A stretch of 64,000 nt of DNA from assembly GCA_029560465.1 (NCBI GenBank), contig JAKQKX010000016.1, positions 1,248 through 65,247 on the forward strand, given 5' to 3'. The notes beneath the pieces were generated by a model that was not told where the DNA came from, did not search any database, and saw only the letters and a program-made list of their open reading frames with translations. Of this stretch, positions 382 through 54,994 are shown piece by piece (within the stretch, counting starts at the first letter, position 1; the number at the start of each line of letters is the position of its first letter). The position numbers and the translations under genes were made by a program. The DNA comes from Candidatus Omnitrophota bacterium (GTDB lineage Bacteria > Omnitrophota > Gorgyraeia > Zapsychrales > JANLHA01).

Positions 382-3300
382 ATGAAAAGTAGCCCGCTTT
401 TTAAATTTTCCACCTGGACAGTTCTTTTTTCGTTTTTCTTTTCATTAATCGCCCCTCCGCGCAGTTCTGCGCAAGAATCATTTTCGCTTCCTGATCCCGG
501 AACGATGATCACCATTACCCCCGCTTTCGTACCCCCCATGTTAAAAGGAATGAAAGTGAATTTGGAAGATCCGTTTACCTTCGATTTCATTTTTGACAGC
601 GGGAATGCCAACCTGACCCCAGAAGAATTGAAAAGCGAGGCCAACAAATTAATTAAATATTTTTTGGCATCATTAACCATCCCCGAAGATGACCTGTGGG
701 TCAATTTATCGCCATATGAAAAAGATCGGGTCATTCCGAAAGAATTTGGCGTTACGGAGATGGGGCGAGATTTACTTGGACAGGATTATATTCTTAAACA
801 ATTGACCGCCTCATTGATTTATCCTGAGAAGGATTTAGGAAAAGAATTTTGGAATCGAGTTTTTTCAAAGGCCAGAGCGCTTTACGGCACAGAAGCCATC
901 CCGATTAATACCTTTAACAAAGTTTGGATCCTTCCAGATAAGGCCGTTGTTTATCAAAACCAAGACACAGTGTTTGTCCTGGAAAGCCATTTAAAGGTTA
1001 TGCTGGAAGGAGATTATCTTTCCCTTAAAGAAAATTTAAGCAATAAAAAATTGGGGATCGATAAATTAGACAAAGAGGCTATTCAGAAGCTGAATGATGT
1101 CTCCGCAGCCATTATTAAAGAGGTGGTTATTCCAGAAATTGAAAAAGAAGTTAATAGCGGGCAAAACTTCGCCAAATTGCGGCAGGTGTACCATTCTCTC
1201 ATTTTGGCGAAGTGGTATAAACAGAATCTCAAGGCCAGCATTTTGAATTGGAAATATTCCGATAAAAGAAAAGTGGTGGGGGTCGATGTCGAAGATAAAT
1301 CGATCAATGAAAAGATTTATGAGCAGTATTTGGAAGCCTTTAAGAAAGGCGTTTTTAATTATATTAAGGAGGATTACGACGTTGCCAAGCAGGAAGTTAT
1401 TCCCAGAAAATATTTTTCTGGCGGCATAGAACTTAAAGTCCCTCTTGAGGTGGAAACAGATCCGGCGATGCTGGCTAAAGCAACGTCGACTGGAAAATTA
1501 AACTGGATTAAAGGAATCTATCGTCAGCCCAGAGTTTCCGCCAGATTTGTCAACGAGTATATAAATCAAAAGTTTCGTGAAGGGGCCGTAAAGGAAGGGC
1601 AGCCGATAGACCTGCCTAACGGCAAACAGGCACAAGTCTATACCGTTAAGGGATTGTTAAAATCAACGGGGCAATTTGGGCACATTGGATTAGGAGCAAA
1701 AGAGAGAAAAGGAGCAGAGGTTGTTTATACGGATGGCGGATTACCGGTCATTTATCTGGACAGTGATTATGCTGAAAATTTAACAGTCAGGGATAACGAA
1801 AAATTCAAGGTTGAGAGGTGGGAAGAGCAAAAGATTGCTTTGGGCCGGGAAAGAGGTTTAAGCCGTCCACTGACCGCGCAAGAGATGCGGCAGTGGATCA
1901 AAAACAACACGACACAAGCCGCTGAATTGTTACAGGAATGGGATAGCCAGGCGCCTTCTTTAGTGCCGTTATTTGAAAAAGCGGAAGCAAAGGGGCTGTT
2001 GCCTTCTGATGAAGAAATTGCTGAGACGTACACGAGAGAAGAAGATTTTAGGGATTTAAATTTGGCGGCTGGCCGTTGGGGCATAAGAAGCGCTTCTTCT
2101 CGGGGGATCATGCCACAACACGCAGCGTATACGGTAGAAGCTGGCGAGAGTTACGATGACATAGTCATAAAAGAGCTTGCAAAACAGAGTGGCGTATCCG
2201 TCGATGATTTGGAGGCGAATTTCGAACGGACTGTTTCTATGCTTGAAGAGAGCCTGGGAAAGACCGGTTTTTCCCAACCAAATGCCGATGTGGTCGCTAA
2301 AAAAATACACGAGATATTCGATCGTCTGATCAAGGTTTATCAGACAAAAACGCAGGAAGCGCCGGGACGGTTACGAATTGTAGATGCGAATACTGTGAAT
2401 GCTTTTGTGATTCGCAAGCGCGCGGATGTGTATTTTTACAAGGGGCTATACGAAGCCCTGTACGATATCTCGACGCGGATGAATGTCCCTCTCACGGAAG
2501 ATATGATTGCTTTTATCATAGCGCATGAGCTTTCCCACGCTTTACAACATACATCCCGTCAAGGCCTCGATATCCGTGACCTTAACGAGAAGGCCTCTCC
2601 ATATCTGATTCAAATGATAAAAAATGGTGAGTACGACGCCGATATGAGAGCCCTTGAATTAATGGATAAAGCCGGATATTCAGTATTCGGCGCGGTTGAC
2701 GCGATGACATTTTTAGAATTCATCACGGGAACTAGCCAGGCCGAAAATGTGTTGAGTTCCCACCCGTATGTGAGCCTCAGAAAACACAGGTTATCACAAA
2801 TTATTTTTGATCAGAAAACGAACGTTTTTACTAATGTCAAGGCTTCAAGGGTTCCTATGGTTGGCAATGGTCGCATAAGGAGCCAGGACGTTGATTTTAG
2901 ACATTTAATGGATAAAAGCGAAGAAGAATTGTTGGCCATGGCGCAGAATGCAGAAAGCCTGGTGGCTTTGGATGAGTTAACGGGGATGCTGGTTCTTCGC
3001 AAGCGTATGAATGCGTTGAAAGGTTTAGTGAGAGAGGACCAATTAAAAGCAGCGTTCTTGCGCGATGTTTATGTTCAGGCTGTGCTGGCGGCAACGGGAA
3101 GAACCTCGCAAGGGATTGATTACTCTGACATGAAAGGTGCGGCGGCCATATATGATTTTGGAAAAGAAACAACAACGGAAAACGTCCTTGAAAGAAATGC
3201 GCCGGCATTTGAAGATAATCCAGATGATGTTATAAAAAAGATAAACGAGTCGCTCAAAGATGACGCATCAAGAGAGGGTGTTGCCGCCAAGAATGTGTTG

Positions 3301-6300
3301 GAAGGGTTGATTTCTTCTGGCAACCGGAGAGTTTATGGCCTTACACAGAATGACTTTGATGGATTTTTACTTCCTTTCGAGGATGTTAAGGATATTATTC
3401 CAATATTTACAAAGAGAAAAGGGGGGCTTAGAGGTGTTTTTGTAAGCAGACAAGAAGGCGCGAGTGTTGATCAAACGTTTTTTGAGGACGCAATGCGAGA
3501 CCCCCAAAGACTTATTTCTGCATTTTTCTACGCGAATTATCTTGGCCAGGAACCATCTGTTGAATTTGGTATCCCCACGACGGAAATGCGCGTAAAGTTA
3601 CAAAGAAGAAAGAATGAAGTGTATTTTGAAAATCCTGCTTATCGGGATACCGGGTCAGCGGAGAATAGAAGACATCTTCAAAATATTGTCCTTCTTCATT
3701 ACGCATTGGCAAAAACCCGTTCCAATATATTTGATAAGTATTTAGATGTTTCATTCCCGGGGATCAAGAGGCTTTTGCAAGTACCTGTACCCGATGTTCG
3801 CCAGCTTTTTGACAGGTATGAGACGTTATTTTCTAAGAAGTATCCTCAACCAATAGCAACTCAATTGGCCGGAAAAAGACTTTATGATTATTTTGGTGTG
3901 AAATTAGAAGGTGCCGGGGATGCCCCCACCGGATTCATTAATGAGGTTTCAAATTTTAAAACACAGGCCAAATCCGAATATGCGGAAGAAGAGGCAGGCT
4001 TTGCAGATTATATGAAGAACAAGGTTGGGGAGTTTGTAGATAGCCATCCTTTAATAATTTTTATGCGAACGGCCATACAACAGTATCGAGATCGGTTGTC
4101 GGTTCGGGATATAGAAAAGTTTGAAGAAACATTGGATCAATTGCGGACAAAAAGATTTGAAAAAAACTATAATTCACATTTGGACAGACAAAATATATCA
4201 AATATTTTAACTAAGCTCGCAGTGGTTTATTCACAAGAACCGCGAAGAGAAGCGCATGTTTCCGCTGTGTTTGCAAATGAGACTAGCTTGGAGTATTACC
4301 TCAAGGAAGAAGAAATTTTATCATTTAAGTCATTGCTGGAATTGCCGGATTGGGCCGTGTCTGACTATTTAAACAGAAAAAGCTATAGTGCCAATAAATT
4401 GATTGAGAATGCGCTGAAACAAGGCACGCCTCTAAGCGAAATATTTGCGTTTATGGGAACCCGCCTTGCGTATGCCGATAGACGAGAAGTTTTCGATAGC
4501 TTATTTTTGGGATGGTTCTCCGAGAATTCCAGGTACTTGTTCGATTTCTTTAAAACAAAGCTTAACAATAATTCACAGGAAATAATCGTGTGGTTCCTTG
4601 GGATGTTTTCCAAAAAGGACGCCCTTGAATTAATTGATAAGTTTTCCAGGGGGCTTTTGTACGAGAGAGCCAAAGACGCCCGCACCAATGTCGATGAAGC
4701 CGCGGAATTAAGAAACCTGGCCATTGCCTTGCTTGAATATATTTACAGGCAGACATCAAAGATATTTCACGCCGATGAAGAATCCGCAAAAGTTTATTTG
4801 GACTTAATAAATGAACGTATTGAAGAATCTGGGAAATCGGGAGATCAAAATTATGTGCGAGAGGTGGTTTACAATGCGCTTATGGTCCTGAGCGCTTCGG
4901 TTGCTCTTAAAATAGAATTCAGTCAACCGGAAGAACCTTCTGAGGATGGAACACCAGATTTTAAGTCTCAAAAGACAAGTCTTTTTCAACGGCAGGAATC
5001 TTTGGGGCGGTGGGAGACTGATTATAATTCACAATTTGCGCTCCATAATTTTGGCTGGAATGATAGAAAAGCAGCTTCTCAATCTGTTTTTGTGAGCCGT
5101 TTAACCGATTTATCAGTTGATCAGCTTAAGAAACTTTTAAAACAGAGATTGCGATACGTGGCGTCGCGAGCGGATGTTGAGTATAGAGGCGAAGTGTTTT
5201 CTTTGTCCAGTTTAAATGATTTTTTTGCAAATTTAATCACTTTAATAATATTAAAAAAAACACGTAACCCAGGATGGGAGAACACTAAGGAAAGCTTAAA
5301 CAGGCTCGATGATTTGATGGGCATCAAGGTTTCCTATTCCCAATATGATAAAAAGACATTTGCTATCCATGCGAAAATGAATTTGAAGATAGACCAGGAT
5401 GAAATCAACACAATATCTTACGACGCGATTAAAGAGAATTTTGTCGGGACTACGATCCCCTCTCCAGAACTTGATTATGTGTGGGGAGCTTATGTGGCGG
5501 CAAATGATCTCCATGGTAATTTTCCGGAAATCGTCCCCTTGCTTCAAAATCCCAACGCTGCAAACGAAAGCATTTACAATCCGATTGTTTTTCTCGAAAG
5601 ACACAAATATGGCAGGAGGGTCTCCTATCGACAAATAGTTCAAAAATTTTTTATGGATTCATCCGTTTACTCGAAACTTTTTAATGCCTATTTGAAAGTA
5701 CAGGGGAAAGGATATGTATACGGTAAATTCAGATCATTGGAAGAACGGCTGGCCTGGATAGCAAGAGTGCTGCCGAACAAGTCGATCATAAAAGACAGCA
5801 TTATTAACCTGTGGGAGACCGATATTTTCCCGGAGATAATCGCTGATTTGCCAGTTTTGGTAAAGTTGGCTCGACAGGCTTCCAGTGAGGGAGAAGGTTT
5901 ACTGCGGGATATGTGGGCGATCCTGGGGGAGATGGACGATGATGTGGGCCGATTAAAAAGGTTAAACGAGCAGATTGATTTATCACCAAAAAAAATACAT
6001 CAATTGTTGGATTTCTATGAAACCGTTATCCCTTTAGCGCTGTCACCCCAAAAAATAGCTCGATATGGAGCAACGGCATATATGCTGTGGCGGTTATTGC
6101 CAGAAAACGCCGGATTAGGCCTCTCGGAAAACCTTGAAGCCTTAACGAAATTTATGCCGGAGCCAGGAGTATTAAGAGACGAATTGTTAATGCGGATCGC
6201 AAACAAGTATGCAATGCGTTTGCAAGACGTGCCTCTTGTTTCTGAGAAATTGTATTCCAATAATTTGTTGTCACGAAGCAGGGACTTAAGAACAGAAGAC

Positions 6301-9237: not shown

Positions 9238-9583
9238 ATTCCTTCAGCTCTTCTGTTATTATTAATCAGTCAAGAATCATGAGTTTCTTAAATGCTAACC
9301 CCTTAGGAATACGGACGCAGGAGATGAATTTTATGAGGGTTTATAAACGGAAAAAATGATATTTGGAGAATAAAGCACCGTCCTCATCAGTCCAGCAGGG
9401 CTTTTTTGAGATATTGAAATGCACCCCCCGCTCCCGCTGGAAAGGAGGAGCTTGTCCTTGTTCCTCGCATGTTTTTTGGGGTGCCCAGGTTGCCCCCGGG
9501 GTCACTTAACCGCCGGGATCTTTTGAAATGCTTGGGAGATATAAATTTTTTATTAACTTCGGGAACAGCAGAGGCTCACAACC

Positions 9584-11173
9584 GTGAAACACAAGAATCC
9601 TTCCAACCCGTTTCGTTTAATCCGCGGGGTGCTTTTCACCCTGACATGGCTTTTCGTTGCCCCAGCCATAAGTTGTGCCACCTTGTCCAATGTTGCCGAT
9701 CACGCGGCCCCTCACAAGTTGTTCAGGCTGACCATGAGCGCGGAAAACCTCCCCGTGGTTAAAGAGCCGGTCAAGCTCCTTACTATTGAGCAAATGGAAG
9801 AGATCAGGACATTGTTTAAAAATGAACGGTTTGGGGCCTTGAGCGTCATGATGGACAAATATCAGTCCGCATCCGAAGCCGATCCAGCGGATGAATTTTT
9901 GATCAGTGCCTTCCTTGATGTTTTTGGGGCGCCCTCCCGTGATTACGAGCGGTTGCTTTTAAAGTGGAAAGAAACGTTTCCCTATAACTATCAGCCGTAT
10001 TTGGCCTTGGCGCAATATTATTACAGTCAGGGATGGGAAAACCGCGGGTCCCAATTCGCCACGGAAACAACAACCGAGCAGTTTCAAAAGATGGAGGACA
10101 GTTTTCAGAAAGCGGAAGAGAACCTCGAGAAAGCTTTAAAGATGAAGCCCAAATTGATGCCCGCGTATTGCATGTTTATCAGTATGTATAATGCCGCAAG
10201 ACCAGAACAGGAGGAGAATGTTTTTATTGAGCGGGCTTTAGAGCTATTCCCCCATTCTTTCCTGGTCTGGTCGAGATGCATCGTAGCCAAAAAACCCCGC
10301 TGGGGCGGCAGTTATGATCAGATGCAGGCTATCGCCAAAGCAGCGGAACAATTTAATAAGGCCAATCCTAACCTGACGAAGTTATATGGTTTTATATACG
10401 CGGATCAAGCGTGGTATCTGAAACGGGCCAAGCAGTATAGTAAAGCGATCGGCCTGTTGCGGGAGGCTTTAGCTTTCGGAGAGCGTTCAAGCCTTCATCA
10501 GGAAATTGCCAAGATTTATTACTATAATTTAGAAGATTACCCACGGGCTTTGGAGGAATGCAATGAAGCGATACGGCTTGGCCCTGGCGCGGAATATTAT
10601 CTTCTTCGTTCCAAAATATATTATAAGCTGGAAAATTACGAGAAATCACTGAGTGACCTGGAAACGGCAAACCGTGTTAATCCGTTTTATGATGAGGTGA
10701 GAAAATGGGTTAAATGGGCTGGCCGGGACCTGATGCTTCAGGGGCATAAAAAATATAAAGCCCATCATGTGCGGGCGGCGATTGGTTTGTTTAATTTGTC
10801 CCTGAAATATAATGACCAAGATCCCGAGACATATCATTGGAGGGGGAAAGCGTTTTTTGACAAAGGCGACGCGGGTTCCGCGCTCAAAGATTTTGAGCGG
10901 GCGCTTGCCCTGAACCCGAGGGATTTTTATTCCGTCAGCATGATCGATTATATCGCCAATTCAGAAGGGCAGTTTGATTTCAGTATCGGATATTGGAGCC
11001 GGTTCCTGAAGCTTGAACCGAACCATTCCGGGGGCTATCTGAACAGGGCCAGGGTTTATTATTATAAAGGGGACTTCGTGAGCTGTTTGCAAGACTTAAA
11101 TCAAGGCTGCCGTTTGGGGAACCAGGAAGCGTGCTCCCGGATTAATAATATCAAAACCAGGGGCAAATTTTAA
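9584..11173 (+). CDS. TPR-repeat protein with N-terminal signal peptide
   Basis: 529-aa ORF. Hydrophobic N-terminus (FTLTWLFVAPAISCA). Repeated TPR-like helices (AIRLGPGAEYYLLRSKIYYKLENYEKSLSDLETANRVNP; ALNPRDFYSVSMIDY...). Confidence 0.7.
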   Translation: MKHKNPSNPFRLIRGVLFTLTWLFVAPAISCATLSNVADHAAPHKLFRLTMSAENLPVVKEPVKLLTIEQMEEIRTLFKNERFGALSVMMDKYQSASEADPADEFLISAFLDVFGAPSRDYERLLLKWKETFPYNYQPYLALAQYYYSQGWENRGSQFATETTTEQFQKMEDSFQKAEENLEKALKMKPKLMPAYCMFISMYNAARPEQEENVFIERALELFPHSFLVWSRCIVAKKPRWGGSYDQMQAIAKAAEQFNKANPNLTKLYGFIYADQAWYLKRAKQYSKAIGLLREALAFGERSSLHQEIAKIYYYNLEDYPRALEECNEAIRLGPGAEYYLLRSKIYYKLENYEKSLSDLETANRVNPFYDEVRKWVKWAGRDLMLQGHKKYKAHHVRAAIGLFNLSLKYNDQDPETYHWRGKAFFDKGDAGSALKDFERALALNPRDFYSVSMIDYIANSEGQFDFSIGYWSRFLKLEPNHSGGYLNRARVYYYKGDFVSCLQDLNQGCRLGNQEACSRINNIKTRGKF

Positions 11174-11376
11174 CTTTTTGAAAACAAGGCTGTTTTGACC
11201 CTTCCCCAAAACAGATTTCAAACCATCCTCGCTGTTTTAGCGCAGGACTCTTCGGGAGCCGTTTGGAACAGGGCAGGAGCCTCTCTGGGACGCCTGAGAG
11301 GCTGGGATTAGCAGATCACCCCTCCCCATGGAGTTTGGAAATGATATCATTTTGCGGATGGAGCGGATTAAAGTAG

Positions 11377-14877: not shown

Positions 14878-15645
14878 ATGAAGTTAAAAAGTGAAATTCT
14901 GATCAGCGTTTGTATGACAGCCCTCTTTTGTGGACTTCCGGCTAAGGCGGAAAGCAAAACCATTTTTGGGGATTATCTTAAGGAGAACGCCGTTGAGGTC
15001 GAATTGAGCGCCCGTACCGATTTTTATTCCAAATATATCTGGCGCGGCTTTCGCCTTGATGATGACTATGTTCTTCAGCCAGGGGTTTCGGTAGGTGGGT
15101 ATGGATTCGAGGTTAATGTCTGGGGCAGTTTTGACACAGCCCAGAATGACGCTTTGGGGTCGGATGAAGTAGACACGACGGTGAGTTACAGCCGTGATTT
15201 TGACGCAGTATCCCTTTCCGTGGGGCACGTTTATTATGATTTTCCTTCCGCGGGAACGTTTAGCAAGGAGTTTTTCTTAGGAGTGGGTTACGACACCCTG
15301 CTGGCCCCGTCTTTCACCTGGTATCACGATTATGGCCGAGAAAGCCAGGGGGGAGGCCATGGGGATTATATGGTGCTCGCGTTGGGGCACACCCTGACGC
15401 TTAATGAGGAATACGGGATTACTTTGGATTTGTCCGGGCATGTTGGGTATAACCAACGCCTGTTTATTAAAGGAAAAGGCGGCGATGTTGCGTTGGGGGC
15501 GGGGCTGACAGTCCCTTTGACAGAGACCCTTTCCTTATCTCCCAGTTTGAATTACAGCCTTCCATACGGAGACATGGAAGATTCTTCCGACGGTAATCAG
15601 GATGATGAATTTTATTGGGGTGCCGGGGTGAGTTGCCGTTTCTAA
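14878..15645 (+). CDS. Outer-membrane beta-barrel protein (porin-like), first gene of the amt operon
   Basis: 255 aa. Signal peptide, alternating aromatic/glycine-rich beta-strand pattern, C-terminal ...GAGVSCRF ending in Phe. RBS aaggagaaacg-ATG. Confidence 0.7.
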   Translation: MKLKSEILISVCMTALFCGLPAKAESKTIFGDYLKENAVEVELSARTDFYSKYIWRGFRLDDDYVLQPGVSVGGYGFEVNVWGSFDTAQNDALGSDEVDTTVSYSRDFDAVSLSVGHVYYDFPSAGTFSKEFFLGVGYDTLLAPSFTWYHDYGRESQGGGHGDYMVLALGHTLTLNEEYGITLDLSGHVGYNQRLFIKGKGGDVALGAGLTVPLTETLSLSPSLNYSLPYGDMEDSSDGNQDDEFYWGAGVSCRF

Positions 15646-43845: not shown

Positions 43846-43919
43846 GGCCCCATCGTCTAGCCTGGTTAGGACGAATGGTTCTCAGCCATTAAACACCGGT
43901 TCAAATCCGGTTGGGGCTA
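43846..43919 (+). tRNA. tRNA-Glu (anticodon CUC), 74 nt, no encoded CCA
   Basis: GGCCCCA acceptor paired with TGGGGCT. D-arm TCGTCTAGCCTGGTTAGGAC, typical of tRNA-Glu. Anticodon stem AATGG/CCATT with loop TTCTCAG. T-arm ACCGG-TTCAAAT-CCGGT. Discriminator A. Confidence 0.8.
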
Positions 43920-43926
43920 TATGTAA

Positions 43927-43960
43927 CCCCCTGCGATTTAATAATTGCAGGGGGTTTTTG
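43927..43960 (+). terminator. Rho-independent terminator of tRNA-Glu
   Basis: ccccctgc-gatttaataatt-gcaggggg followed by ttttt. Confidence 0.75.
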
Positions 43961-44122
43961 TTTGGGGTAGAATGGGAATGATTTTATAGAAGAGCAGTTT
44001 TTTTCTTGGGAAGTTTTGCCATTTTTCTATTTTTAAGTGGCACAATTTCTGGGGTGCAGGTCAGGCGGGTCAATTTGCAAAAACTTAAAGGGGTCGGGAG
44101 ATCCAATAAAAGGGATTTAAAA

Positions 44123-46306
44123 ATGCGAAAATCAATTCCAAAATATCTGTATCGTCTTATCGTAACTGTAGTTGTGGGAATCTTTTTTGCCACTCAAGTC
44201 TCAACTTCAGCGGGTTATGCCCAGATTCCCTCACCCTCAAATTCCAAAGCTTTGCAAAACCTGCCGCCCGCAGGTTCGCAAGTGGGTTTAAGCCAGAAGT
44301 TTTTCCCGGCCAACTTGCGTGGCCTCAAGACTTATCCTGGAAATCCGCTGCAGTTTGATTTTGTTATTGATACCGGTGATGACAACCTCTCCGGCCCGGT
44401 TTTTGAGGAGGAAGCGAAGAAATTGATTAAGTATTTTCTCGCCGTTTTAACTGTTCCCGAAGACGAATTGTGGGTGAACCTTTCGCCGTATGAAAAAGAC
44501 CGCATTATCCCGGAAGGCCTGAGCGTAACGGAACTCGGAGTGGATATGCTAGCCCAAGACTATCTTTTAAAACAGTTCACAGCTTCGTTGACCTATCCGG
44601 AAGAAAAATTGGGCGCGGAATTTTGGCAGAGAATATACGCGAAGGCCAAGGAAGAGTACGGTACGGATAACATCCCGCTCAATACGTTCAACAAGGTTTG
44701 GATCGTGCCGGACAAGGCAGGGGTTTATGAATACAAAGACAGTGTTTTTGTCATCGAACGGCATTTTAAAGTCATGCTGGAGAATGATTACCTGGCGCTG
44801 AAGGAGAATCTGGGGAGGAAAGACGCGGGGGCCGATGAGCAATCAAAAATAGTAGCAAATCAGGTGAATAATATGTCGGGAAAGATTGTCAAAGAGATTA
44901 TTCTGCCGGCGATCGAACAGGAAGTCAATGAGGGCAAGAATTTCGCGCAGTTGCGGCAGATTTATAACGCAATGATTTTAGCGACCTGGTACAAGAAAAG
45001 GTTAAATGCGGGTTTCCTGGGGCAGGTGTATGTGAATAAGAATAAGATCAAAGGCGTTGATACGGATGACCATGCCGCCAAAGAGAAGCTTTACGCGCAG
45101 TACCTGGAGGCGTTTAAAAAAGGCGTTTACAATTATATTAAGGAAGACCATGACGCGGCCAGCCAAAAAGCCATTCCGCGAAAATATTTTTCCGGCGGGC
45201 TAGGTGCTGGAGTGGTGACAACAGAGAAGCTGCGGATTCTCCGCGGCGACCCGGCTCGTTTACCCAAATCGGTATCATCCGCCGTGATGCTGCCGGAATC
45301 AAAGCAGGGGAAGGACCACAAGGTGACGATTCAGTTAATAGAAAGCGCGACAAACGGAAGGCAGGGGTCTCCGGTGTCGTTACCATCACTACAGCTAGCC
45401 GGCACAGTGGACAGAAAAGGGATTTTTTCTCCGGAAGAGGCGGCTCGGGCCGGCTTTCTTCCCGAGGATGATTATAGTGCCCTGGTCAGTTCCCCTATAT
45501 TCGTCTCCGGTGGAAAGTTTGTCAAAAGCGCACTGATCCTTTGCACAGGACTTGTTACCGCGTACTATTCTTATTTAAATGAAATTGAGATAGTCCAGCG
45601 TATAGCGGGAATTTTACTCGCCGGGGGCGGTCTTTTGGGGGTTCTGAGCGCCATTAAGGACAACGTCTCGATATGGACAAGCCAGTTTTCTTATGAAAGA
45701 GGAATACGGGAAGAATATAGGCAGTTAGTTCATTACAATCTGGATGTCGTTCAGAAATTGCGGGACCGTCTTCCAGTAACGAGGATGGCGACCCTGGAGC
45801 AGGATTTGGCATTGTTGAGAGATGCGATCGCATTTAGAAATCAGGGATATGATTTCGCAGTGCTTATCCAGCCGGGGGAGTGGGCAGCAGTTGAGCGATC
45901 AGAGACACGGTGGGAAGACGATCCTGATACTTATAGTTTGGAAGGCGGGCAGCCACAAAAGTTGGTGACGCACACATGGACAGAAGAGGCCTGGGTTGAG
46001 GAAAGGATTATAATCGTTCAAGGAGAACGTCTTTTTGACAGGAGTTCTTCTCCGATTCAGGAGGATGGCCGTTTAACGCAAGCCAATGACAAGAATGTTG
46101 GAGGTATTAATCTTGATGCTGAATTATTGAATTTGCAAATCAAACGCGACGGAGCTGGCGTGCCCTTGCCTTTACCGCAGCAACCGATCCAGAATATGAA
46201 AATAGACGGTTTCCTGCCGTTGATTATCAATATTGAACCGGTTAGTATTCCGCAACTGTTGGGAATTTTGTCGGATAGGAAGAAAAAGGAAGACGTCTTT
46301 TATTAA
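44123..46306 (+). CDS. Secreted/membrane protein paralogous to the N- and C-terminal modules of the giant protein (382-9237) but lacking its enzymatic core
   Basis: Signal peptide MRKSIPKYLYRLIVTVVVGIFFATQVSTSAGYA. Residues ~90-400 align with giant-protein residues ~75-385 (LIKYFLAVLTVPEDELWVNLSPYEKDRIIPE... vs LIKYFLASLTIPEDDLWVNLSPYEKDRVIPK...; NTFNKVWIVPDKAGVY vs NTFNKVWILPDKAVVY). The C-terminal ~55 aa (…DGFLPLIINIEPVSIPQLLGIL) aligns with the giant C-terminus (…DGLLPVIINITPITTTLPIILG). The central region has two hydrophobic helices. Confidence 0.8.
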   Translation: MRKSIPKYLYRLIVTVVVGIFFATQVSTSAGYAQIPSPSNSKALQNLPPAGSQVGLSQKFFPANLRGLKTYPGNPLQFDFVIDTGDDNLSGPVFEEEAKKLIKYFLAVLTVPEDELWVNLSPYEKDRIIPEGLSVTELGVDMLAQDYLLKQFTASLTYPEEKLGAEFWQRIYAKAKEEYGTDNIPLNTFNKVWIVPDKAGVYEYKDSVFVIERHFKVMLENDYLALKENLGRKDAGADEQSKIVANQVNNMSGKIVKEIILPAIEQEVNEGKNFAQLRQIYNAMILATWYKKRLNAGFLGQVYVNKNKIKGVDTDDHAAKEKLYAQYLEAFKKGVYNYIKEDHDAASQKAIPRKYFSGGLGAGVVTTEKLRILRGDPARLPKSVSSAVMLPESKQGKDHKVTIQLIESATNGRQGSPVSLPSLQLAGTVDRKGIFSPEEAARAGFLPEDDYSALVSSPIFVSGGKFVKSALILCTGLVTAYYSYLNEIEIVQRIAGILLAGGGLLGVLSAIKDNVSIWTSQFSYERGIREEYRQLVHYNLDVVQKLRDRLPVTRMATLEQDLALLRDAIAFRNQGYDFAVLIQPGEWAAVERSETRWEDDPDTYSLEGGQPQKLVTHTWTEEAWVEERIIIVQGERLFDRSSSPIQEDGRLTQANDKNVGGINLDAELLNLQIKRDGAGVPLPLPQQPIQNMKIDGFLPLIINIEPVSIPQLLGILSDRKKKEDVFY

Positions 46307-46480
46307 TTTTACCGGAAGCATGATTCAGGATGAATCTGGAAATGTTATCCGCGCAATTTTTATAGACTGTTCGGCGCGCTGATGCAGATATCCGGAGGAG
46401 TTCCAGGGACACAATACTTAATTGAGGAGAAAACTGTAGGTGCCAGGCTCCCAATTGGGATGTCGACAAAGGAGGCCGGC

Positions 46481-47044
46481 ATGAAAAATAAAAACCAAAG
46501 AAATGCTTTGTCGTGCACGCAGGGATTTTTAATCGGATTAATTGCTTTCAGTAATTTTATCCATCAAGAAAAATCCGCCTTTGCCATGGCGATGTGCCCC
46601 TATATAGACATTGAGGCCACCGTTGTTTCTTTGTCATTGGAAAGCCCCGAGGGCTATTATGAGGACGGGAAACTGATCCGGGCTCCGCTTGATTCTGCCG
46701 TTGTGAGAATAGATAAAGTTTATGAAAGAGGCGGAGACGGGCTATTTGACTGGGCTTCTCTCGGGATTGAAGAAGGGAAGGACGTGGAGCTTGAATTTAA
46801 ATATTCAGTAAGGCCCGCTAAAATTGTGACCGTTGTTGGGCGAACGATACACTCCGGCCGAGTTGTTTCTCATGTTGGTGCCCCTGCTGAAAACACGTTT
46901 GAAGACGGTTATTTTGTTTTTAGAGAAGACGGGAGCGCGGAAGCCGAAACAATATTGCCGGGCTTGCAGGCCGGGTCCCGTTTCCGGACGAAATTATGGA
47001 AGACTTTCGAGGTTAAAGTAGGTCAGTATGAGGTGGTGCATTAG
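46481..47044 (+). CDS. Hypothetical secreted protein
   Basis: AGGAGG RBS, then ATG. Signal peptide MKNKNQRNALSCTQGFLIGLIAFSNFIHQEKSAFA. No recognisable motif. Confidence 0.55.
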   Translation: MKNKNQRNALSCTQGFLIGLIAFSNFIHQEKSAFAMAMCPYIDIEATVVSLSLESPEGYYEDGKLIRAPLDSAVVRIDKVYERGGDGLFDWASLGIEEGKDVELEFKYSVRPAKIVTVVGRTIHSGRVVSHVGAPAENTFEDGYFVFREDGSAEAETILPGLQAGSRFRTKLWKTFEVKVGQYEVVH

Positions 47045-47119
47045 TTATCCGGACAACGATCCTTTTGTATTCTACCCTTAGCCGCGGAAATAGATCTCCA
47101 AGACGGAAGACAAAGAAAT

Positions 47120-49819
47120 ATGAGCATGGCGTTGATAAAACATTGCGCTAAAATAAAGTCCGCTGAATCAAGCGCGGCGAAGGCCGGCAGAAACATGGGG
47201 CACGCGATGAATTCGCAGGAAGCCATGCGTAAGGATTATGTGAAGAGTTTGTGGTGCATTATTTTATTGTTTTTTATCATAGGGATTCCCGGACAGGGCT
47301 TGTCTTATTCTAAAGACGAGTCTGTTGTGGCAGCCGTCACGGCGCTGCGCGAGATCACGTCTGTTGACCAGTTGCTTGAGTATTTGGATGATCAAGAATG
47401 GTTTAATCGCTTCGCTGCGATTCAGGTTTTGGGAGAAAGAAAGGATGGCCGCGCGGTTGAGCCTTTACTGGCAATGCTTAAACATGAAAATGACCCTGCC
47501 TTTCGTAAGGAAATCCTTAGCGCTCTTACGGGAATTGGGGGACGGGGGGTGGTTGAGCCTTTACTGACCGTGCTTAAAGACGAACAGGACTCTTCGACCC
47601 GTAAGGACATTTTTGTCGCGCTTGCTGAAATGAATGATCCGCGGGCTATCACCGCTTTCGTAGATGAGCTGGAAAAGGATACGTTTCAATTTTATGATGA
47701 TCCGGAGATATATTTGGTCAGGCTTGTGAACGGGGCGCAGGATTCGGCGATGGTGTTGCCGGCGCTTCATGCCCGTGATGTTGCTGTGCGGCAAGCTGCG
47801 GCCGCGGCCTTGGACAAACTCGGATGGAGGCCCTCGAACAAAGAGCAAGAGGTTTTATATTCCGCGGCGAAGCGGGAATGGGAAAAATGTGTTCTGCTCG
47901 GTAGCTTTTCCGTTGACGTTTTGGCGGAATTGCTGAATGACGCGTATTGGTCGGAGCATGCTTCCGAGATCGGGTTGGCTCTCGGGAGGATAAACGATAC
48001 CAGGGCCTTTGCGGTGTTGGAAAGGGCTTTGCAGTCAGATATGTGGTATCTTCGTGAAACAACAGCCGAAGTTCTGGGGGATCTCGGGGACCCTCGCGGC
48101 GTTGAGCCTTTGATCCGCGCCGTTTCTGATCATGATGAGAGAGTGAGCAGCAAGGCGGTCGAGGCCTTGGGAAAGATGAAAGCTTCGCAGGCACAGCCCG
48201 CCCTGGTCGCTGCGTTGATGCATGAGGACAGCCGCGTCCGAAAAGCCGCGGCTGCGGCTCTGGAGGCGATGGCCTGGAACCCTTCTACCCCGCAGGAGAA
48301 AGCGGCTTATTACACCGTGAAGCAGGACACGGAGGCGTGTGTGGCGCTCGGGCAGGCTGCTGTCGCGCCTCTGCTGGTTTCCGCTTCGGATTCTTTTGAT
48401 TTTGAGGGGCGTGATTTTGCGGTTGCCGCGTTAGCGGAAATCGGACCTCCTGCTGTTGAGCCGCTGCTTGCTGAGTTTGCCTCGCGTGCGGAATTTTCCT
48501 CCGCAGCAGGTAACACCGGGGCCGACGAGGCCAGGTTTTATGAATTTCAGCAGGCGAATATCCGCAGGCGCCAAGCCATTGTCAGGGCGTTGGGGGAGAT
48601 CAAGGACCTGCGGGCAATAGAGCCCCTGATCAGGTCATTGGCGGACGCAGAGATCAGGAACACGGTTATTGAAGCCTTGGGGAAGGTGGGGTCTTCGGAC
48701 GCGAATACGATGCTTATTGGTTTGCTTAAGGATGATGAGCCGCAGATACGGAAAGTGACGGCTGACGCTTTGGGCCAGATCGGGTGGATGCCGGCAACGG
48801 AGGCCGAAAAAGTCGCTTATTATATTGCGGGTCAGGATTGGGAGGCCTGTGAAAAACTGGGGCCGGCGGCTGTCGAACCGTTGATCGCCCTTGTGTTGGC
48901 CGGGCAGGAAGTCAATTTTGATGCCGATCCGGTTGTCAGCGTGCTGGGCAGGATCAAAGACCCTCGGGCGATCAGGCCCCTGGTATGGGCGTTAAGCCTG
49001 TATCATTTTTTCAGCGATTACGGGGTGCGTGATGAGAATAAACTCATAGAAGCGATTGCCGGTTTCGGCCCGGCGGCCGTAGGGCCTTTGATGGAAGCCA
49101 TGGATAAACGTCCGGTCATTTTAAGCGTTAGTGACCTGCCCGTGGATAGCAGGGAACGCGTTATGGATATTTTACTGAAAAACAATTGGGCGGTACGACT
49201 GAGATTATGGCAGTTTTTGCTGACCGTTGATCCTGCAAGCGTCGAGGACCGGATGGCTGAGGCGTTGGGCGAGGATTTTGAGAGATTGAAAAAATTTTTT
49301 ATCCCGTCAGACGCAGAACCGAACCGCCAACTGATCGCCCGGGCCATCGCCGTGATCGGCGATGCGCGCGCTATCCCTGTTCTGGCCGCGCATCTGCAGG
49401 ACTGGGAAGCCCGTTATGAGATCGCAGGTGCTTTGCGGCAGTTGCAGTGGCAGCCGACGACCGAAAAAGAAAGAATTTATTTTCTGCTCAGCGGAGGAAG
49501 CGATGACGGCATTAACGCGCAATGGGGCGCCGTGGAAAAAGTATTGATGGATGACCTTGATAATGGAGACGAGCGCGCGGTCCGTTTTGCCTTGTACACA
49601 TTCATTTATCTGGGCCGGGAGGAGTACGTCCCGAAACTTATCGAGGTCCTATGGGAACGAGATTCCAGCAAGCTGGCCGAGGCCTATTTGAATTGCGGGC
49701 ATGATAAATTGGCAGAGGCCGCCAGTAAGTGGGCATTGGCCAACGGGTATATGGTGACTTCCCATAACGCCACGCCCAACGATGGTTCCTACCATCCCGT
49801 CAGTTGGGATTCTAAATGA
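47120..49819 (+). CDS. HEAT-repeat (PBS-lyase type) protein, ~899 aa, N-terminal membrane/signal anchor
   Basis: At least 12 repeats of the pattern RA(V/I)EPL(I/L)..L.D.....R..A..ALG.IGD.RA (e.g. DGRAVEPLLAMLKHENDPAFRKEILSALTGIGGRGVVEPLLTVLKDEQDSSTRKDIFVALAEMNDPRAI). Hydrophobic segment LWCIILLFFIIGIPG near the N-terminus. The true start may be at an internal Met. Confidence 0.75.
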   Translation: MSMALIKHCAKIKSAESSAAKAGRNMGHAMNSQEAMRKDYVKSLWCIILLFFIIGIPGQGLSYSKDESVVAAVTALREITSVDQLLEYLDDQEWFNRFAAIQVLGERKDGRAVEPLLAMLKHENDPAFRKEILSALTGIGGRGVVEPLLTVLKDEQDSSTRKDIFVALAEMNDPRAITAFVDELEKDTFQFYDDPEIYLVRLVNGAQDSAMVLPALHARDVAVRQAAAAALDKLGWRPSNKEQEVLYSAAKREWEKCVLLGSFSVDVLAELLNDAYWSEHASEIGLALGRINDTRAFAVLERALQSDMWYLRETTAEVLGDLGDPRGVEPLIRAVSDHDERVSSKAVEALGKMKASQAQPALVAALMHEDSRVRKAAAAALEAMAWNPSTPQEKAAYYTVKQDTEACVALGQAAVAPLLVSASDSFDFEGRDFAVAALAEIGPPAVEPLLAEFASRAEFSSAAGNTGADEARFYEFQQANIRRRQAIVRALGEIKDLRAIEPLIRSLADAEIRNTVIEALGKVGSSDANTMLIGLLKDDEPQIRKVTADALGQIGWMPATEAEKVAYYIAGQDWEACEKLGPAAVEPLIALVLAGQEVNFDADPVVSVLGRIKDPRAIRPLVWALSLYHFFSDYGVRDENKLIEAIAGFGPAAVGPLMEAMDKRPVILSVSDLPVDSRERVMDILLKNNWAVRLRLWQFLLTVDPASVEDRMAEALGEDFERLKKFFIPSDAEPNRQLIARAIAVIGDARAIPVLAAHLQDWEARYEIAGALRQLQWQPTTEKERIYFLLSGGSDDGINAQWGAVEKVLMDDLDNGDERAVRFALYTFIYLGREEYVPKLIEVLWERDSSKLAEAYLNCGHDKLAEAASKWALANGYMVTSHNATPNDGSYHPVSWDSK

Positions 49820-49855
49820 TTAATTGTATAGAAGAAGTGGTTGGAGCGAAGCGGA

Positions 49856-49917
49856 AACCATTCAAATCCGGCTTAGGCTATATTTGCCATCTGCGATTGA
49901 TAAATGGCCGGGGGCTT
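49856..49917 (+). repeat. Degenerate direct repeat of the 3' end of tRNA-Glu plus its terminator (partial tRNA remnant; putative att-site scar)
   Basis: ACCATTCAAATCCGGCTTAGGCTATATTTGCCATCTGCGATTGATAAATGGCCGGGGGCTTT versus tRNA-Glu 3' half plus terminator ACCGGTTCAAATCCGGTTGGGGCTATATGTAACCCCCTGCGATTTAATAATTGCAGGGGGTTTT. Identical blocks are TTCAAATCCGG, GGCTATAT and CTGCGATT. No 5' acceptor strand, D-arm or anticodon arm. Confidence 0.55.
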
Positions 49918-50263
49918 TAGTGTAAAATAAGCCTGATCCTTGTAATGTTTTTCCTGAAAATACTCGAGTGTCTTTTATCTGACACTTGTTTGATGCAGTT
50001 TTCAGGGAGCAGGCCAGCTTGCCGGCGCACATCGGCATGTTTTATGGGACTGCGCATCAACATTTTAAGGCCCTGATCGGGTTTTTTTATCCATAATTTG
50101 GACGCAAGTGTTTCCGGTTATCTTTTTTATGGAAAATCCGGTAGAATCATCAAGAAATAATTGATTTTACTGTTTGTGTATGATTAAATATTTATACTTT
50201 AATAATAGCTTTTCCTCGTTGTGCGAAGCTTGAGAGTCTAATATCGGAAATTATGCAAGCCGA

Positions 50264-51019
50264 ATGAATCAAAACATCCGTTTCCATTCTCCCTCAACGG
50301 ACCCAGGTTGGGGTGACCAGGGCCGGGCCGAAAAAGCTTCCGCCATTCTGTTAACGCTAGAGTTAATGACCGGATTAAATTTTCAGGATAGTCGTTGGGT
50401 GGACGTGGGTTGTGGGTGTGGCGAGATTGCGGCGCATCTTTCCACACAGGTTGGGCACATGATTGCGATTGACCCGGCGCCTTGGCAACGGTGGCCGACG
50501 CTTAGGGACACCCACCCGAATTTAGAATTTGTCCAAGGAGATTACACCAGCAATTACCCTGAACCGGCTTCAGTCGATGTCGTTATCTGTAACCAAGTCT
50601 ACGAACATGTGCCGGATCCTGAAGCGTTGCTTGGATTTATATACCGTATTTTGAAACCGGGCGGATATGCTTATTTCGCAGGCCCCAATCTCCTGTTTCC
50701 TATTGAACCTCATGTTTTTTGGCCTTTTGTACATTGGTTGCCAAGGCAGTTTGCAAGAGCGCTGATGCGTTTTTTTCATGCCAAGTATCTCGTTACTGCA
50801 AATTTGGTAACGATCTGGACTTTACGTCGTTGGTTTCATGACTTTGAAGTACGCAACGCCGTGCCAACAATCCTGCGCAACCCAGATAAATATGGTCGTA
50901 AGGGCTTGCTTTGGCATGCCGCATCCATGGTCCCGTGGTGCATTTTTGACATGCTGACAGTTTTTTCCCCCGGATTTATCTTTGTCCTTCGTAAACCAGA
51001 TATATATCAAACCCTGTAA
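50264..51019 (+). CDS. Class I SAM-dependent methyltransferase
   Basis: 251 aa. Motif I VDVGCGCGEIAAHL. Post-I acidic residue. Motif ILKPGGYAYFAGPN. Preceded by a ~340-nt AT-rich non-coding stretch. Confidence 0.75.
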   Translation: MNQNIRFHSPSTDPGWGDQGRAEKASAILLTLELMTGLNFQDSRWVDVGCGCGEIAAHLSTQVGHMIAIDPAPWQRWPTLRDTHPNLEFVQGDYTSNYPEPASVDVVICNQVYEHVPDPEALLGFIYRILKPGGYAYFAGPNLLFPIEPHVFWPFVHWLPRQFARALMRFFHAKYLVTANLVTIWTLRRWFHDFEVRNAVPTILRNPDKYGRKGLLWHAASMVPWCIFDMLTVFSPGFIFVLRKPDIYQTL

Positions 51020-51047
51020 AACGAGTTCTTCTTTGTTCTATAGAAGG

Positions 51048-51076
51048 AACCCCTTCGATTGAAGGGGTTTTTTGTT
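51048..51076 (+). terminator. Rho-independent terminator after the methyltransferase gene
   Basis: aaccccttc-gatt-gaaggggtt followed by ttttgttttg. Confidence 0.75.
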
Positions 51077-51249
51077 TTGTGAAGATGAGCATGACTTTAG
51101 ACTTTGTCCGAGAGCAATATGTTTTAAAGAGGCCTGTTTTATGGGCGTTTTTTAACGCGGTGAAGGACAAGCGATTTTTCATGACTTGTGATACAATCAT
51201 TATGAAAGCCAGGGTGTTCACACGCGGTTCCATAAACAGGAGGTGAACT

Positions 51250-51594
51250 ATGGTCCTCTTTCATGCCCTTCGGAGGGGCCGGCCTTTCCGGTGGCATATT
51301 TTTTTGATTTTACTCGCAGCAGGATTCCTGATGAATCCGCAAAGGGTATCCGCGCAGGCCATGACAGAGTATATGATGTTACAGGGGCAGGTCCAGAAGG
51401 ATATGCAGCAGGGGATCGCCACCGCGACCGCTCCGTCCCAACAGCAGGCCACGGCCTCTGTCCAGGAGCCCATTCAGGCGGCTTCTTCGGATCAACCCGC
51501 CCGCCCCGGCGGGATTACCGTAACATTTACTCCTGTGCATATCGGAGTGATTTTGACTCTGGGCGCGCTGTTTTGGATGTTCATGAATAAGTAA
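51250..51594 (+). CDS. Small secreted/membrane protein, Gln-rich, C-terminal TM
   Basis: AGGAGGTG RBS 6 nt upstream of the ATG. Signal-like FLILLAAGFLMNPQRVSAQA. C-terminal hydrophobic HIGVILTLGALFWMFM. Confidence 0.5.
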   Translation: MVLFHALRRGRPFRWHIFLILLAAGFLMNPQRVSAQAMTEYMMLQGQVQKDMQQGIATATAPSQQQATASVQEPIQAASSDQPARPGGITVTFTPVHIGVILTLGALFWMFMNK

Positions 51595-51685
51595 TTGAAT
51601 CGAGTTTTTGGGCCCTGAGGATCTGAGTGCGTCCTGCCCAGCCTGGCAGGATATTTTTTATCTTTTCAGAGACGTTTTATCTCAC

Positions 51686-52525
51686 ATGAAATCATCCCTA
51701 AAAAAACCGCAACCCAAAGATCCTTTCATCGCCCTTATGTTTTCTTTCATTTTCCCCGGCTTCGGGCAGATATACGCGGGGAGAATCAAAAGAGGCATTT
51801 TCTTCTCCTTGGCGCATTTAAATTTTATCCTCGCCTTACTGTTGGTTATATTCCATCCCACACAGAAATTAAATCAGCATATTTTATGGCCTGCCTTTCT
51901 TTTCATCCTTTTTGAGATCTTCGTCGTCCTGGACGCGTACATTTACACCCTGAGTTTAAAGTATCCCTTTAAAAAAACGTTCGTCCGGGTCGTCCTGATC
52001 CCTCTCGCCACCGTGATCTTCGTGCTTGTCTTTAATTTGAACATCCTTTTGGCGGAAATCGTGAATAAATTTATTGTGCTGGCGCCCAGGATCGTGTCGA
52101 ATTCCATGAGCCCCGTGTTGGTGGAAGAGGACTGGTTTCTCGTGAACAGGTTCCAATATCTGGCGGGGGCGCCGGAGCGGGGGGACATTGTGTTTTTTGT
52201 TTTTCCGAAAGACCAGAGCAGGGTTGTTGTCAAAAGGCTGATTGCCAAGGAGGGTGAGTCCGTCGAAATCAGGGACGGCCATATTTATGTCAATAACCAG
52301 CTCGTCAAAACTTCCGGCACTGCCGATATTTATTATTTTAACGGGGGCGATTACGGCCAGGCCAATCAGGTGATAAACGTGCCTCGGGGCCAGTACTATG
52401 TTCTGGGTGATTACAGCGAGAAAAGCACGGACAGCCGCTTCTGGGGGTTTGTCCCGAGAAAAAACATTATCGGGAAAGCCTATAAAATAGTTTTTCCTTT
52501 TGAGCGTTCCGGGTTTATCCAATGA
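51686..52525 (+). CDS. lepB: Signal peptidase I (S26 family) with extended 4-TM N-terminal region
   Basis: S26 boxes: SNSMSPVL (Ser box), VVKRLIAKEGESV (Lys box), VLGDYSEKSTDSRFWGFV (GDN..S.DSR box). Confidence 0.85.
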   Translation: MKSSLKKPQPKDPFIALMFSFIFPGFGQIYAGRIKRGIFFSLAHLNFILALLLVIFHPTQKLNQHILWPAFLFILFEIFVVLDAYIYTLSLKYPFKKTFVRVVLIPLATVIFVLVFNLNILLAEIVNKFIVLAPRIVSNSMSPVLVEEDWFLVNRFQYLAGAPERGDIVFFVFPKDQSRVVVKRLIAKEGESVEIRDGHIYVNNQLVKTSGTADIYYFNGGDYGQANQVINVPRGQYYVLGDYSEKSTDSRFWGFVPRKNIIGKAYKIVFPFERSGFIQ

Positions 52526-52649
52526 GCATTTAGTTGAGACGACCCAAGCGAGCGTAAACTAGAAATGCGAATTGATCCTGAGTGCGAGAGAGCTAAAGCG
52601 AACGCGGCGAAGGATGTTGGTTTACTGCTGATTAAAGGGGACGAAGACC

Positions 52650-54843: not shown

Positions 54844-54994
54844 CTCTTTATGCGCCAATATTTTAGATTAATTGATTGCGGGGGACTTTTTGGGGGGTGT
54901 AAAATGAGGAGGTTTTTGATAACACGCGAGTTCCCGTAATTTCTTATCGTTGTTTTATTATAAAAAGCAGGCTAACTTTGGATGGAGGTGGGTC

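Follow-up and report, generated by a model that had tools for sequence, protein, structure and literature searches.

A probable attR-type relic inside a strain-variable gene array behind tRNA-Glu(CUC) in a Candidatus Omnitrophota genome

The DNA considered in this study (the window) is a stretch of 64,000 nucleotides (nt) from Candidatus Omnitrophota, contig JAKQKX010000016.1. It carries an intact tRNA-Glu(CUC) gene and, about 5.9 kb downstream, a degraded copy of the 3' end of that gene and of the sequence that follows it. This copy, together with the short conserved sequence on its left, will be called the scar, and its origin is the subject here. Between the tRNA and the scar lie three open reading frames (ORFs), p766, p220 and a gene for a HEAT-repeat protein, and beyond the scar a methyltransferase gene (Table 1). 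An earlier note, made from the window sequence alone, had described the tRNA with its terminator, the copy of some 60 nt, the three ORFs and the lack of an integrase, and had read the whole as a decayed genomic island bounded by the tRNA and the scar. The description has stood up well. The interpretation has had to be changed, to that of an old junction of attR type (the attachment-site remnant at the right end of an insertion) lying within a larger array of small units.

Table 1. Features of the window from tRNA-Glu(CUC) to the first rightward stretch held in common with a genus-level relative.
Feature	Coordinates	Strand	Basis or remarks
tRNA-Glu(CUC), intact, no encoded CCA	43846..43919	+	ARAGORN; Rfam 58.1 bits
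Module copy 1, intact	43920..43977	+	nhmmer match 43903-43977, E=1.4e-22
p766, cassette 1	44123..46306 (listed ORF 44006-46306)	+	translation; probable start ATG 44123
Junction between cassettes 1 and 2	46307..46480	+	pairwise alignments, sequence reading
p220, cassette 2	46481..47044 (listed ORF 46382-47044)	+	probable start 46481 after AAGGAGG, 187 aa
899-aa HEAT-repeat protein, cassette 2	47120..49819	+	Pfam HEAT_2 E 5e-54, HEAT_PBS
RE-A right-end remnant GAAGAAGTGGTTGGAGCGAAGCGGAAACCA	49831..49860	+	conserved, not tRNA-derived
Displaced tRNA-Glu 3' fragment TTCAAATCCGGCTTAGGCTATAT	49861..49883	+	alignment, repeat search, census
Module copy 2, degenerate	49884..49930	+	nhmmer, fold
AT-rich methyltransferase leader	49931..50263	+	sequence; ~330-340 nt
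Class I SAM methyltransferase	50264..51019	+	Pfam Methyltransf_23/11/25
Possible module copy 3, weak	51044..51095	+	terminator hairpin and GTTTTGTGAAGATGAG tail, between methyltransferase and next ORF
115-aa ORF and signal peptidase S26	51240..52260	+	first rightward stretch common to genus-level relative L039

Related loci were retrieved through orthologues of the FIST gene that adjoins tRNA-Glu. They represent nine related genome types, L001/L005, L002, L006, L011, L037, L038, L039, L040/L043 and, less reliably, L046; L041, L042, L044 and L045 match the window at 100% identity. The relatives are metagenome assemblies throughout, and the sequence covered is 10 kb either side of the anchor genes. 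L001 is an Omnitrophota metagenome-assembled genome whose core genes are ~85% identical to those of the window. L011, at 94-98% identity, is the sole relative with the gene order of the window; sliding identity between the two varies from 84 to 99% by gene, and the recombination boundary that was sought there did not appear as a clean step. The flank of L040/L043 upstream of tRNA-Glu is 99.3% identical to that of the window.

L046 was kept out of the primary evidence as a probable assembly chimera. At 8072-11188 it shows two non-identical FIST/HK/GGDEF/Rpe/CTP-synthase arms, inverted and joined at tRNA-Glu, and the tRNA between these two FIST-to-CPSase arms is a hybrid, with a 5' half of the relatives' type and a 3' half of the window's type. 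The arrangement is probably a chimera assembled at a hot spot, with a real inversion as the alternative.

The tRNA gene of the window is followed at once by a hairpin and T-run (43925-43956; -23.9 kcal/mol, z -6.4 against shuffled sequence), which the terminator scan lists as well. Overlapping the 3' arm of this hairpin is a sequence that resembles a promoter, TTGCAG (43945-43950), 17 nt, TAGAAT (43968-43973); the term promoter-like reflects its letters only, and the promoter scan did not list the site. Terminator and promoter-like site together make up what I will call the module, intact in the window as GTAACCCCCTGCGATTnAnnAATTGCAGGGGGTTTTTGTTTGGGGTAGAAT. A module stands directly 3' of the tRNA in L006 as well.

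From the D-loop onward, the window tRNA-Glu differs from the sequence of every relative. There are six differences from the tRNA common to L001, L002, L006, L011, L038, L039 and L040, consisting of a D-loop indel and substitution and two compensated stem pairs. A comparison of window 43872-43960 with L040_rc 6240-6320 and L011 3446-3730 puts the limits of the difference at a patch of ~90 nt, in which the tRNA body and module of the window depart from those of every relative, the 99.3%-identical strain among them. The patch looks like a recent short allele replacement, to judge from its sequence. The 3' half of the window-type tRNA was also seen in the odd contig L046.

The degraded copy is the best non-self match to tRNA plus terminator in the window by local alignment. 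Positions 49861-49921 align to 43900-43961 (T-loop to terminator) with 47 of 62 columns identical and one 1-nt gap, giving a score of 47, as compared to 30 for the runner-up and to a mean of 16.4 (standard deviation, sd, 2.9) for a background of 840 tiles. A repeat search independently gives the same pair (D9 and D12, with spacings of 5960 and 5961), and an nhmmer profile from which the window was left out, made solely of the relatives' copies, matches 49864-49928 at E=4e-8. The homology begins exactly at the T-loop (TTCAAAT), with no tRNA 5' half, and Rfam makes no tRNA call at the scar even at E<=1.

The tRNA-derived fragment comprises the T-loop, the 3' strand of the T-stem, the 3' strand of the acceptor, the discriminator and TAT (23 nt), 20 of whose positions match the 3' end of the window tRNA plus TAT. 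It carries the CCGGC T-stem strand found in the tRNA of the relatives, not the CCGGT of the window. On its left is RE-A, a sequence unrelated to tRNA, and 49836-49873, which spans the join, matches a junction in L001 (L001_rc 15129-15167) at 97% identity. On its right, the second copy of the module has lost its stable hairpin: the fold of 49878-49925 (-12.4 kcal/mol, z -1.2) is no better than that of shuffled sequence, the fold of 49833-49925 as a whole has a z of -0.09, and the terminator scan lists nothing at the scar module. In L011 an 11-nt deletion and a 1-nt insertion at the same place have removed the G-run and T-tail. The scar is therefore already decaying, as the weak hairpin and the deletion in L011 indicate, and it was there before the window and L011 diverged.

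I took a census of such fragments in ten sequences, the query being the final 25 nt of the tRNA followed by TAT and the cut-off a score of at least 11.5. Besides the tRNAs themselves there are 14 tRNA 3' fragments, every one of them downstream of tRNA-Glu on the same strand. The relatives carry 1-5 additional fragments each. The fragments differ in their 5' limit, and most are then followed by a copy of the conserved terminator and promoter-like module.

The fragments adjoin three conserved right ends, none of them derived from tRNA and each joined at a fixed position of the tRNA. RE-A joins at TTCAAAT, in the scar of the window, in L011 (two copies, one proximal and one distal), and in L001, L038, L040 and L046. 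RE-B (...GGGGATCCACG...GCGCA) joins at AATCCGG in L037, L039, L002 and L001. RE-C (...AATTAGAAAGA...AAAAGTTYTTTCTTTTRT) joins at (G)GCTGGGGCTA in L001 (three copies), L037 (two), L038, L006 and L039. L001 alone has at least five successive junctions. In L040, RE-A and TTCAAAT are followed directly by unrelated DNA, which places the crossover at the T-loop. L002 and L005 share a B12-radical-SAM gene, an RRM gene and a module at 92% identity and split exactly after the -10 hexamer of the module. The scar may be regarded as a remnant of attR type because it carries one of the three conserved right ends (49831-49860), and the 23 tRNA-derived nt with that element end on their left are the only specific att-type evidence in the repeat.

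The tRNA is also the place where the relatives part company. DNA homology between the window and each relative ends at the 3' end of tRNA-Glu (43919-43921), as seen in L001, L002, L037, L038, L039, L040/L043 and L011; in L011 it resumes past a 156-nt insert behind the tRNA. An insert of ~150 nt follows the tRNA in L011, L002 and L037, and the window has none. Every relative has a single tRNA-Glu(CUC) at the locus, with no second full gene. What comes next varies. In L001 it is a 2.7-kb unit, lying between the tRNA and an RE-C junction, that encodes a 203-aa serine recombinase adjoining the tRNA (Pfam Resolvase, E 2e-43). Within this resolvase unit is a c-di-GMP-I riboswitch (L001 7841-7932, - strand; Rfam RF01051, 63.5 bits), upstream of a 182-aa ORF without a Pfam domain. 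The L006 unit holds a transposase fragment, a TPR protein, a GIY-YIG protein and a restriction-endonuclease-like gene. Its arrangement mirrors that of L001: tRNA, TAT and module come in sequence, and 3.2 kb further downstream lies a displaced fragment that has CCA. It follows that the module can be an arm of the inserted element itself. TIR, DUF5677 and IS110 genes come after the tRNA in L038, a two-component system in L037, and in L039 a p766 orthologue and then NHL and PKD proteins. In L040/L043 a 2851-aa SpvB/TcdB/RHS (YD-shell) toxin-like gene (L040 560-9115, - strand) replaces p766, p220 and the HEAT gene, and a 124-aa ORF and an SseB_C protein come after it in L040.

The genes of the window fit the same pattern. 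p766 is a short paralogue of the N-terminus of a 2951-aa protein encoded at 382-9237 (47% identity over 440 aa by BLASTP against the N-terminal 426 aa, E 1e-125); it has no Pfam domain, and its orthologues lie behind tRNA-Glu in L011 and L039. The TPR/DUF4034 protein of the L006 unit (1804-2994, - strand) is 28% identical to the product of the ORF at 9584-11173, beside the giant gene of the window, so that two pieces of the giant-gene neighborhood, this homologue and p766, recur as cargo at the tRNA-Glu site. p220, likewise without a Pfam domain, was called as a 187-aa gene in L011, and its L002 orthologue (86.6% amino acid identity) has a module copy ahead of it. The HEAT protein also has an orthologue in L002 (77.8% amino acid identity). 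There the two genes again form a pair, with a module copy directly ahead of them and a different gene set further upstream, and DNA homology to L002 stops at 49830, 11 nt past the HEAT stop codon and immediately before RE-A. Between the two cassettes, the window, L011 and L039 are alike to ~46388 (GATGCAG) and diverge beyond it; at this break L011 retains ATATCCGGAGGA and a partial module before p220, and L039 shows an RE-C-like junction.

On the far side of the scar, the leader of the methyltransferase gene is 96-97% identical in L011, and the GC content of 49820-50263 is 0.39. Within the leader, at 50134-50147, a T-loop/T-stem motif AAATCCGG is followed at once by TAGAAT, like the -10 hexamer of the module. 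It is perhaps one more collapsed junction, perhaps a coincidence; some two occurrences of an 8-mer are expected in 64 kb. The methyltransferase has close homologues solely in L011 and L012 (97%), both arranged like the window, the next best (69%) lying in an unrelated glycosyltransferase cluster, and the gene is not at the tRNA-Glu loci of L001, L002 or L037-L040. The possible third module folds well (51044-51095; -18.3 kcal/mol, z -4.5) and is listed by the terminator scan; its nhmmer match is just E=0.022, and it aligns locally to 43943-43986. Similarity to L039 resumes at 51240 (blastn, 79.9% over 1021 nt to L039_rc 9746-10750), and the L039 counterpart lies ~8.3 kb downstream of its own tRNA-Glu, after a module copy. 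The right boundary of the array is thus given by L039 alone. The S26 orthologue of L037, whose genome measures 3.35 Mb, is ~585 kb from tRNA-Glu, and so the right flank is not conserved and the tRNA is a breakpoint of long-range synteny as well.

Read from left to right, the array consists of module 1 and p766; the junction, p220 and the HEAT gene; RE-A, the fragment, the decayed module 2 and the methyltransferase gene; and at its right end the possible module 3, beyond which come the 115-aa ORF and S26. Three or four units make up the variable array, which extends from 43920 to ~51240 and has the scar in its interior. Several claims of the earlier note need revision on this account. The bracketed segment is not a single island, inasmuch as p766 (L039, L011) and p220-HEAT (L002, L011) are distributed separately and are divided by the junction at ~46388. 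The scar is not an outer boundary, for the methyltransferase gene is within the variable array. The synteny expected of an empty site, with tRNA-Glu directly followed by the methyltransferase gene, was found in none of the relatives examined. The pattern of att-type integration survives in altered form, as an attR-type fragment, old and decaying, at a recombination hot spot rather than at the edge of one island. As to the terminator half of the supposed att repeat, the repeat is real and this half belongs to the module, whose promoter-like core occurs also at loci with no tRNA fragment.

I would put the probability at about 0.65 that 49831-49930 is an old, non-functional junction of attR type, the relic of a site-specific insertion within an accretion array. 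By this account the right end of an integrated element, RE-A, would have been fused at the T-loop to a displaced tRNA-Glu 3' end and its module. The 3' end of tRNA-Glu would have served repeatedly as an insertion site in this lineage of Omnitrophota, each insertion restoring the tRNA 3' end, usually bringing its own terminator (often a module) and shifting the previous copy downstream. Units of one to three genes would accumulate in this way between tRNA fragments, later to be lost, truncated or swapped. The homology, the positions of the junctions, the conserved ends, the bias in orientation, the replacement at the level of strains and the decay are matters of direct observation; that a site-specific recombinase made the junctions I infer, along with its identity and the order of events.

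Several things can be said against this reading. Nothing marks the cargo as foreign. The earlier note had supposed an atypical composition, extending into the AT-rich ~340 nt after the scar, and the composition of the segment between the repeats is not atypical: its GC content is 0.501 (0.500 for the window), its tetranucleotide distance is 0.134 as compared to a tile mean of 0.163 (sd 0.043), ranking 76 of 117, and the AT-rich stretch is an ordinary intergenic leader. The cargo is as diverged as the core flanks, and p766 has its paralogue in the same genome. Identity to L039 is 86.8% in the p766 region and 87.7% in the upstream flank; identity to L002 is 84.9% in the p220-HEAT region and 84.7% in the flank. 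Because the genes diverge in step with their flanks, the cargo must have been long resident in the lineage, roughly since these genomes began to diverge, and is not a recent import.

Nor is there a recombinase at hand. Pfam finds no integrase or recombinase in 43920-51240 (the three ORFs, as the earlier note had it, and the methyltransferase), and no tyrosine integrase turned up in the roughly 70-90 kb of variable-side sequence of the relatives surveyed for recombinases, where there are just the small resolvase-type serine recombinase of L001 and the IS110 transposase of L038. Within the surveyed loci no recombinase is linked to an RE-A end, the one recombinase-bearing unit (L001) belonging to RE-C. 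Only ~30 nt of RE-A survive, right behind the HEAT gene, so that the element from which the scar came cannot be identified with what the array now contains. IMG/VR viral contigs are without the tRNA 3' end, the module or RE-A. A viral origin was considered and rejected, the IMG/VR scans with the module, the RE-A 16-mer and the tRNA 3' end being either empty or yielding 18 matches that do not extend beyond the 16-mer. Finally, the repeats of ~80-110 nt formed by fragment and module could serve RecA-dependent exchange.

This last point leads to the rival that calls for the most discussion, namely that cassettes are shuffled by homologous recombination alone. The repeat units, about 75-96% alike between copies, would act as portable homology, and RecA would loop out segments, re-insert them or replace alleles after uptake of DNA. 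The lack of an integrase in the array is what one would expect from such a process, and so is the presence of the module core at sites with no tRNA fragment (L003, L007, L009, L010 and 54856-54908 of the window). The split of L002 and L005 at the end of a shared module and the short patch by which the window tRNA and module differ from a 99.3%-identical strain have the same flavor, as does a variant, TATTTGCC, shared by the proximal module of L011 and the distal scar as if one repeat had begotten the other. Homologous exchange by itself leaves unexplained how three distinct conserved ends came to lie at three fixed positions in several genomes. It is also at odds with L040, where homology ends right after the 7-nt T-loop, and with the position of the recombinase gene next to the tRNA in the L001 unit. 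I favor site-specific over general recombination on the grounds of the fixed junction positions, the conserved ends, the strict orientation and the tRNA-proximal recombinase gene in one unit, and consider homologous exchange improbable as the sole cause, though exchange through the repeats of fragment and module probably contributes too.

The other rivals fare worse. If tRNA-Glu had been duplicated in tandem and the second gene, with its terminator, had then lost its 5' half, the remains would be a tRNA 3' end and a terminator-like sequence in the correct order and orientation, as is the case. Against this, the homology begins exactly at the T-loop, and the non-tRNA sequence preceding it is conserved at the same junction elsewhere (97% to L001). 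The relatives have many fragments, with varied 5' limits, and none has two full tRNA-Glu(CUC) genes at the locus, all of which makes duplication very unlikely. I give equally little credence to a functional element, whether an RNA at the 3' end of the HEAT transcript, tRNA-like or acting as a terminator, or a leader that regulates the methyltransferase gene. The scar does lie where a terminator would be expected, 11 nt past the HEAT stop codon, and a weak hairpin (GCCAT...ATGGC) is left; set against this are folds that do not improve on those of shuffled sequence (z -1.2 and z -0.09), the deletion of the G-run and T-tail in L011, the empty terminator scan and the want of an Rfam match. A known RNA at the scar or AT-rich leader was looked for in Rfam at E<=1 and dismissed, the search giving the tRNA and two sub-threshold small RNA matches on terminator hairpins. 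Chance likeness of two GC-hairpin terminators and a common T-loop motif might be suggested by T-loop-like 10-11-mers, such as CAAATCCGGCT, that occur elsewhere in the window by chance. It is refuted by a score ~10 sd above the background of the window, by the match to the independent profile and by the 97% identity between 38 flanking nt and a junction of another genome.

That elements insert at tRNA 3' ends, accrete in tandem and decay is a well-established principle, and to that extent the finding is confirmatory. In 2002 Williams reportedly assigned crossovers in tRNA genes to sublocations at the T-loop or the 3' end. The present case is less usual in its very small units, in three crossover positions within one tRNA and in a promoter-like module that travels with the fragments.

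Comparison with known systems is instructive in both directions. The Islander collection maps genomic islands in tRNA and tmRNA genes across prokaryotes and requires an integrase (PMC4383910). Like those islands, the locus pairs an intact tRNA with a 3' fragment that is displaced downstream in direct orientation and starts at the T-loop, and it shows a synteny break at the tRNA 3' end with strain-variable content and tandem arrays with one fragment per unit. Unlike them, the unit in the window and most units in the relatives have no integrase, composition is ordinary, the units are small (~1-3.5 kb, with one to three genes), and the homology reaches ~40-60 nt beyond the tRNA end into the terminator and promoter-like module. 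Membership among islands of the strict Islander type fails for lack of an integrase.

The ssrA islands of Dehalococcoides come closer. They are tandem, with a motif upstream of each direct repeat and insertion in the T-loop, and their integrase-less units have been read as cis-mobilizable or fixed (McMurdie et al. 2011, PMC3146451). Here too there are tandem units behind a single small-RNA gene, with direct repeats of its 3' end (PMC3146451). The likeness extends to a conserved motif before each repeat that does not align with the RNA gene, to insertion inferred in the T-loop, to the many units that lack an integration module and to the presence in some of a serine recombinase of ~200 aa. The target is different, however, being tRNA-Glu(CUC) in place of ssrA; neither a large CcrB-like serine recombinase nor a six-gene integration module turned up; there are three types of right end and crossover position instead of one; and the repeat includes the promoter-like module.

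There is a resemblance, moreover, to cis-mobilizable elements (CIMEs), in that the units have att-type flanks, carry no recombination or transfer genes and lie in tandem at the same target. It includes short remnants of internal deletion, such as the ~150-nt insert between tRNA and module in L011, L037 and L002. Pavlovic et al. are said to have described CIMEs and the tandem accretion of ICESt1-type elements in 2004. Unlike CIMEs, the units have no cognate integrative and conjugative or mobilizable element (ICE or IME) with an RE-A end in the surveyed loci and viral contigs, and their mobility is putative. An integrase-less, CIME-like unit in an accretion array is the best fit. The array also recalls an integron, with small units laid out in one direction from a fixed chromosomal site and a short recurring spacer; the likeness is one of layout only. 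There is no IntI, no attI and no palindrome of the attC type, and the spacer is derived from tRNA, with a terminator and a promoter-like site. Since the recurring sequence carries a promoter-like site, each unit would have its own promoter.

The module is not confined to the tRNA-Glu site. In a metagenome scan its promoter-like core was found after tRNA-Glu (L006) and at tRNA-fragment junctions (L004, L005, L008), and also with no tRNA fragment beside it (L003, L007, L009, L010). The window holds one intact copy of the core, at 43945-43973, and a degenerate one, likewise with no tRNA fragment, at 54856-54908. The occurrence of the core at loci without a tRNA fragment indicates that what the repeat has as its terminator half is a regulatory motif found across the lineage. 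The 29-nt core, TTGCAGGGGGTTTTTGTTTGGGGTAGAAT, is nearly exact at L003 282-311, in L007, at L009 3336-3365 and at L010 10299-10328; one copy lies ~350 nt after a tRNA-Pro/Arg/His cluster, and the degenerate copy of the window is upstream of a 198-aa ORF. Conservation of this degree is unusually strong for a promoter and may, judging by the sequence, point to a specific regulon or sigma factor.

A second family of repeats, ~105 nt in length, occurs at 52514-52624 in the window, L001 14705-14807, L002 14883-14990 and 6669-6735, and L005 5395-5505. It is immediately 3' of tRNA-Leu(GAG) in L001 and L002, between the S26 and radical-SAM genes in the window, and inverted within the tRNA-Glu variable region in L002 and L005; the L011 copy is without the central 41-50 nt. 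Its fold is not significant (z 0.09), and Rfam gives no match to it.

A bolder possibility, which I regard as doubtful, is that the locus is an active capture site of integron-like behavior, where small integrase-less cassettes, each bringing its own tRNA 3' fragment and module, insert at the T-loop or acceptor end of the tRNA and are exchanged between strains by a recombinase acting in trans. That recombinase might be the small resolvase-type serine recombinase of L001. If so, the module would provide each captured cassette with a promoter.

Whatever the mechanism, 43920 to ~51240 is a region of flexible, strain-variable DNA anchored on a tRNA, in a poorly studied and uncultivated phylum. For purposes of annotation, the genes in the array are best treated as accessory. 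With tRNA-gene fragments and the recurring terminator and promoter-like unit as markers, arrays of this sort can be delimited in Omnitrophota genomes, and the array is a tractable place to seek the recombinase and to follow the spread of small integrase-less units.

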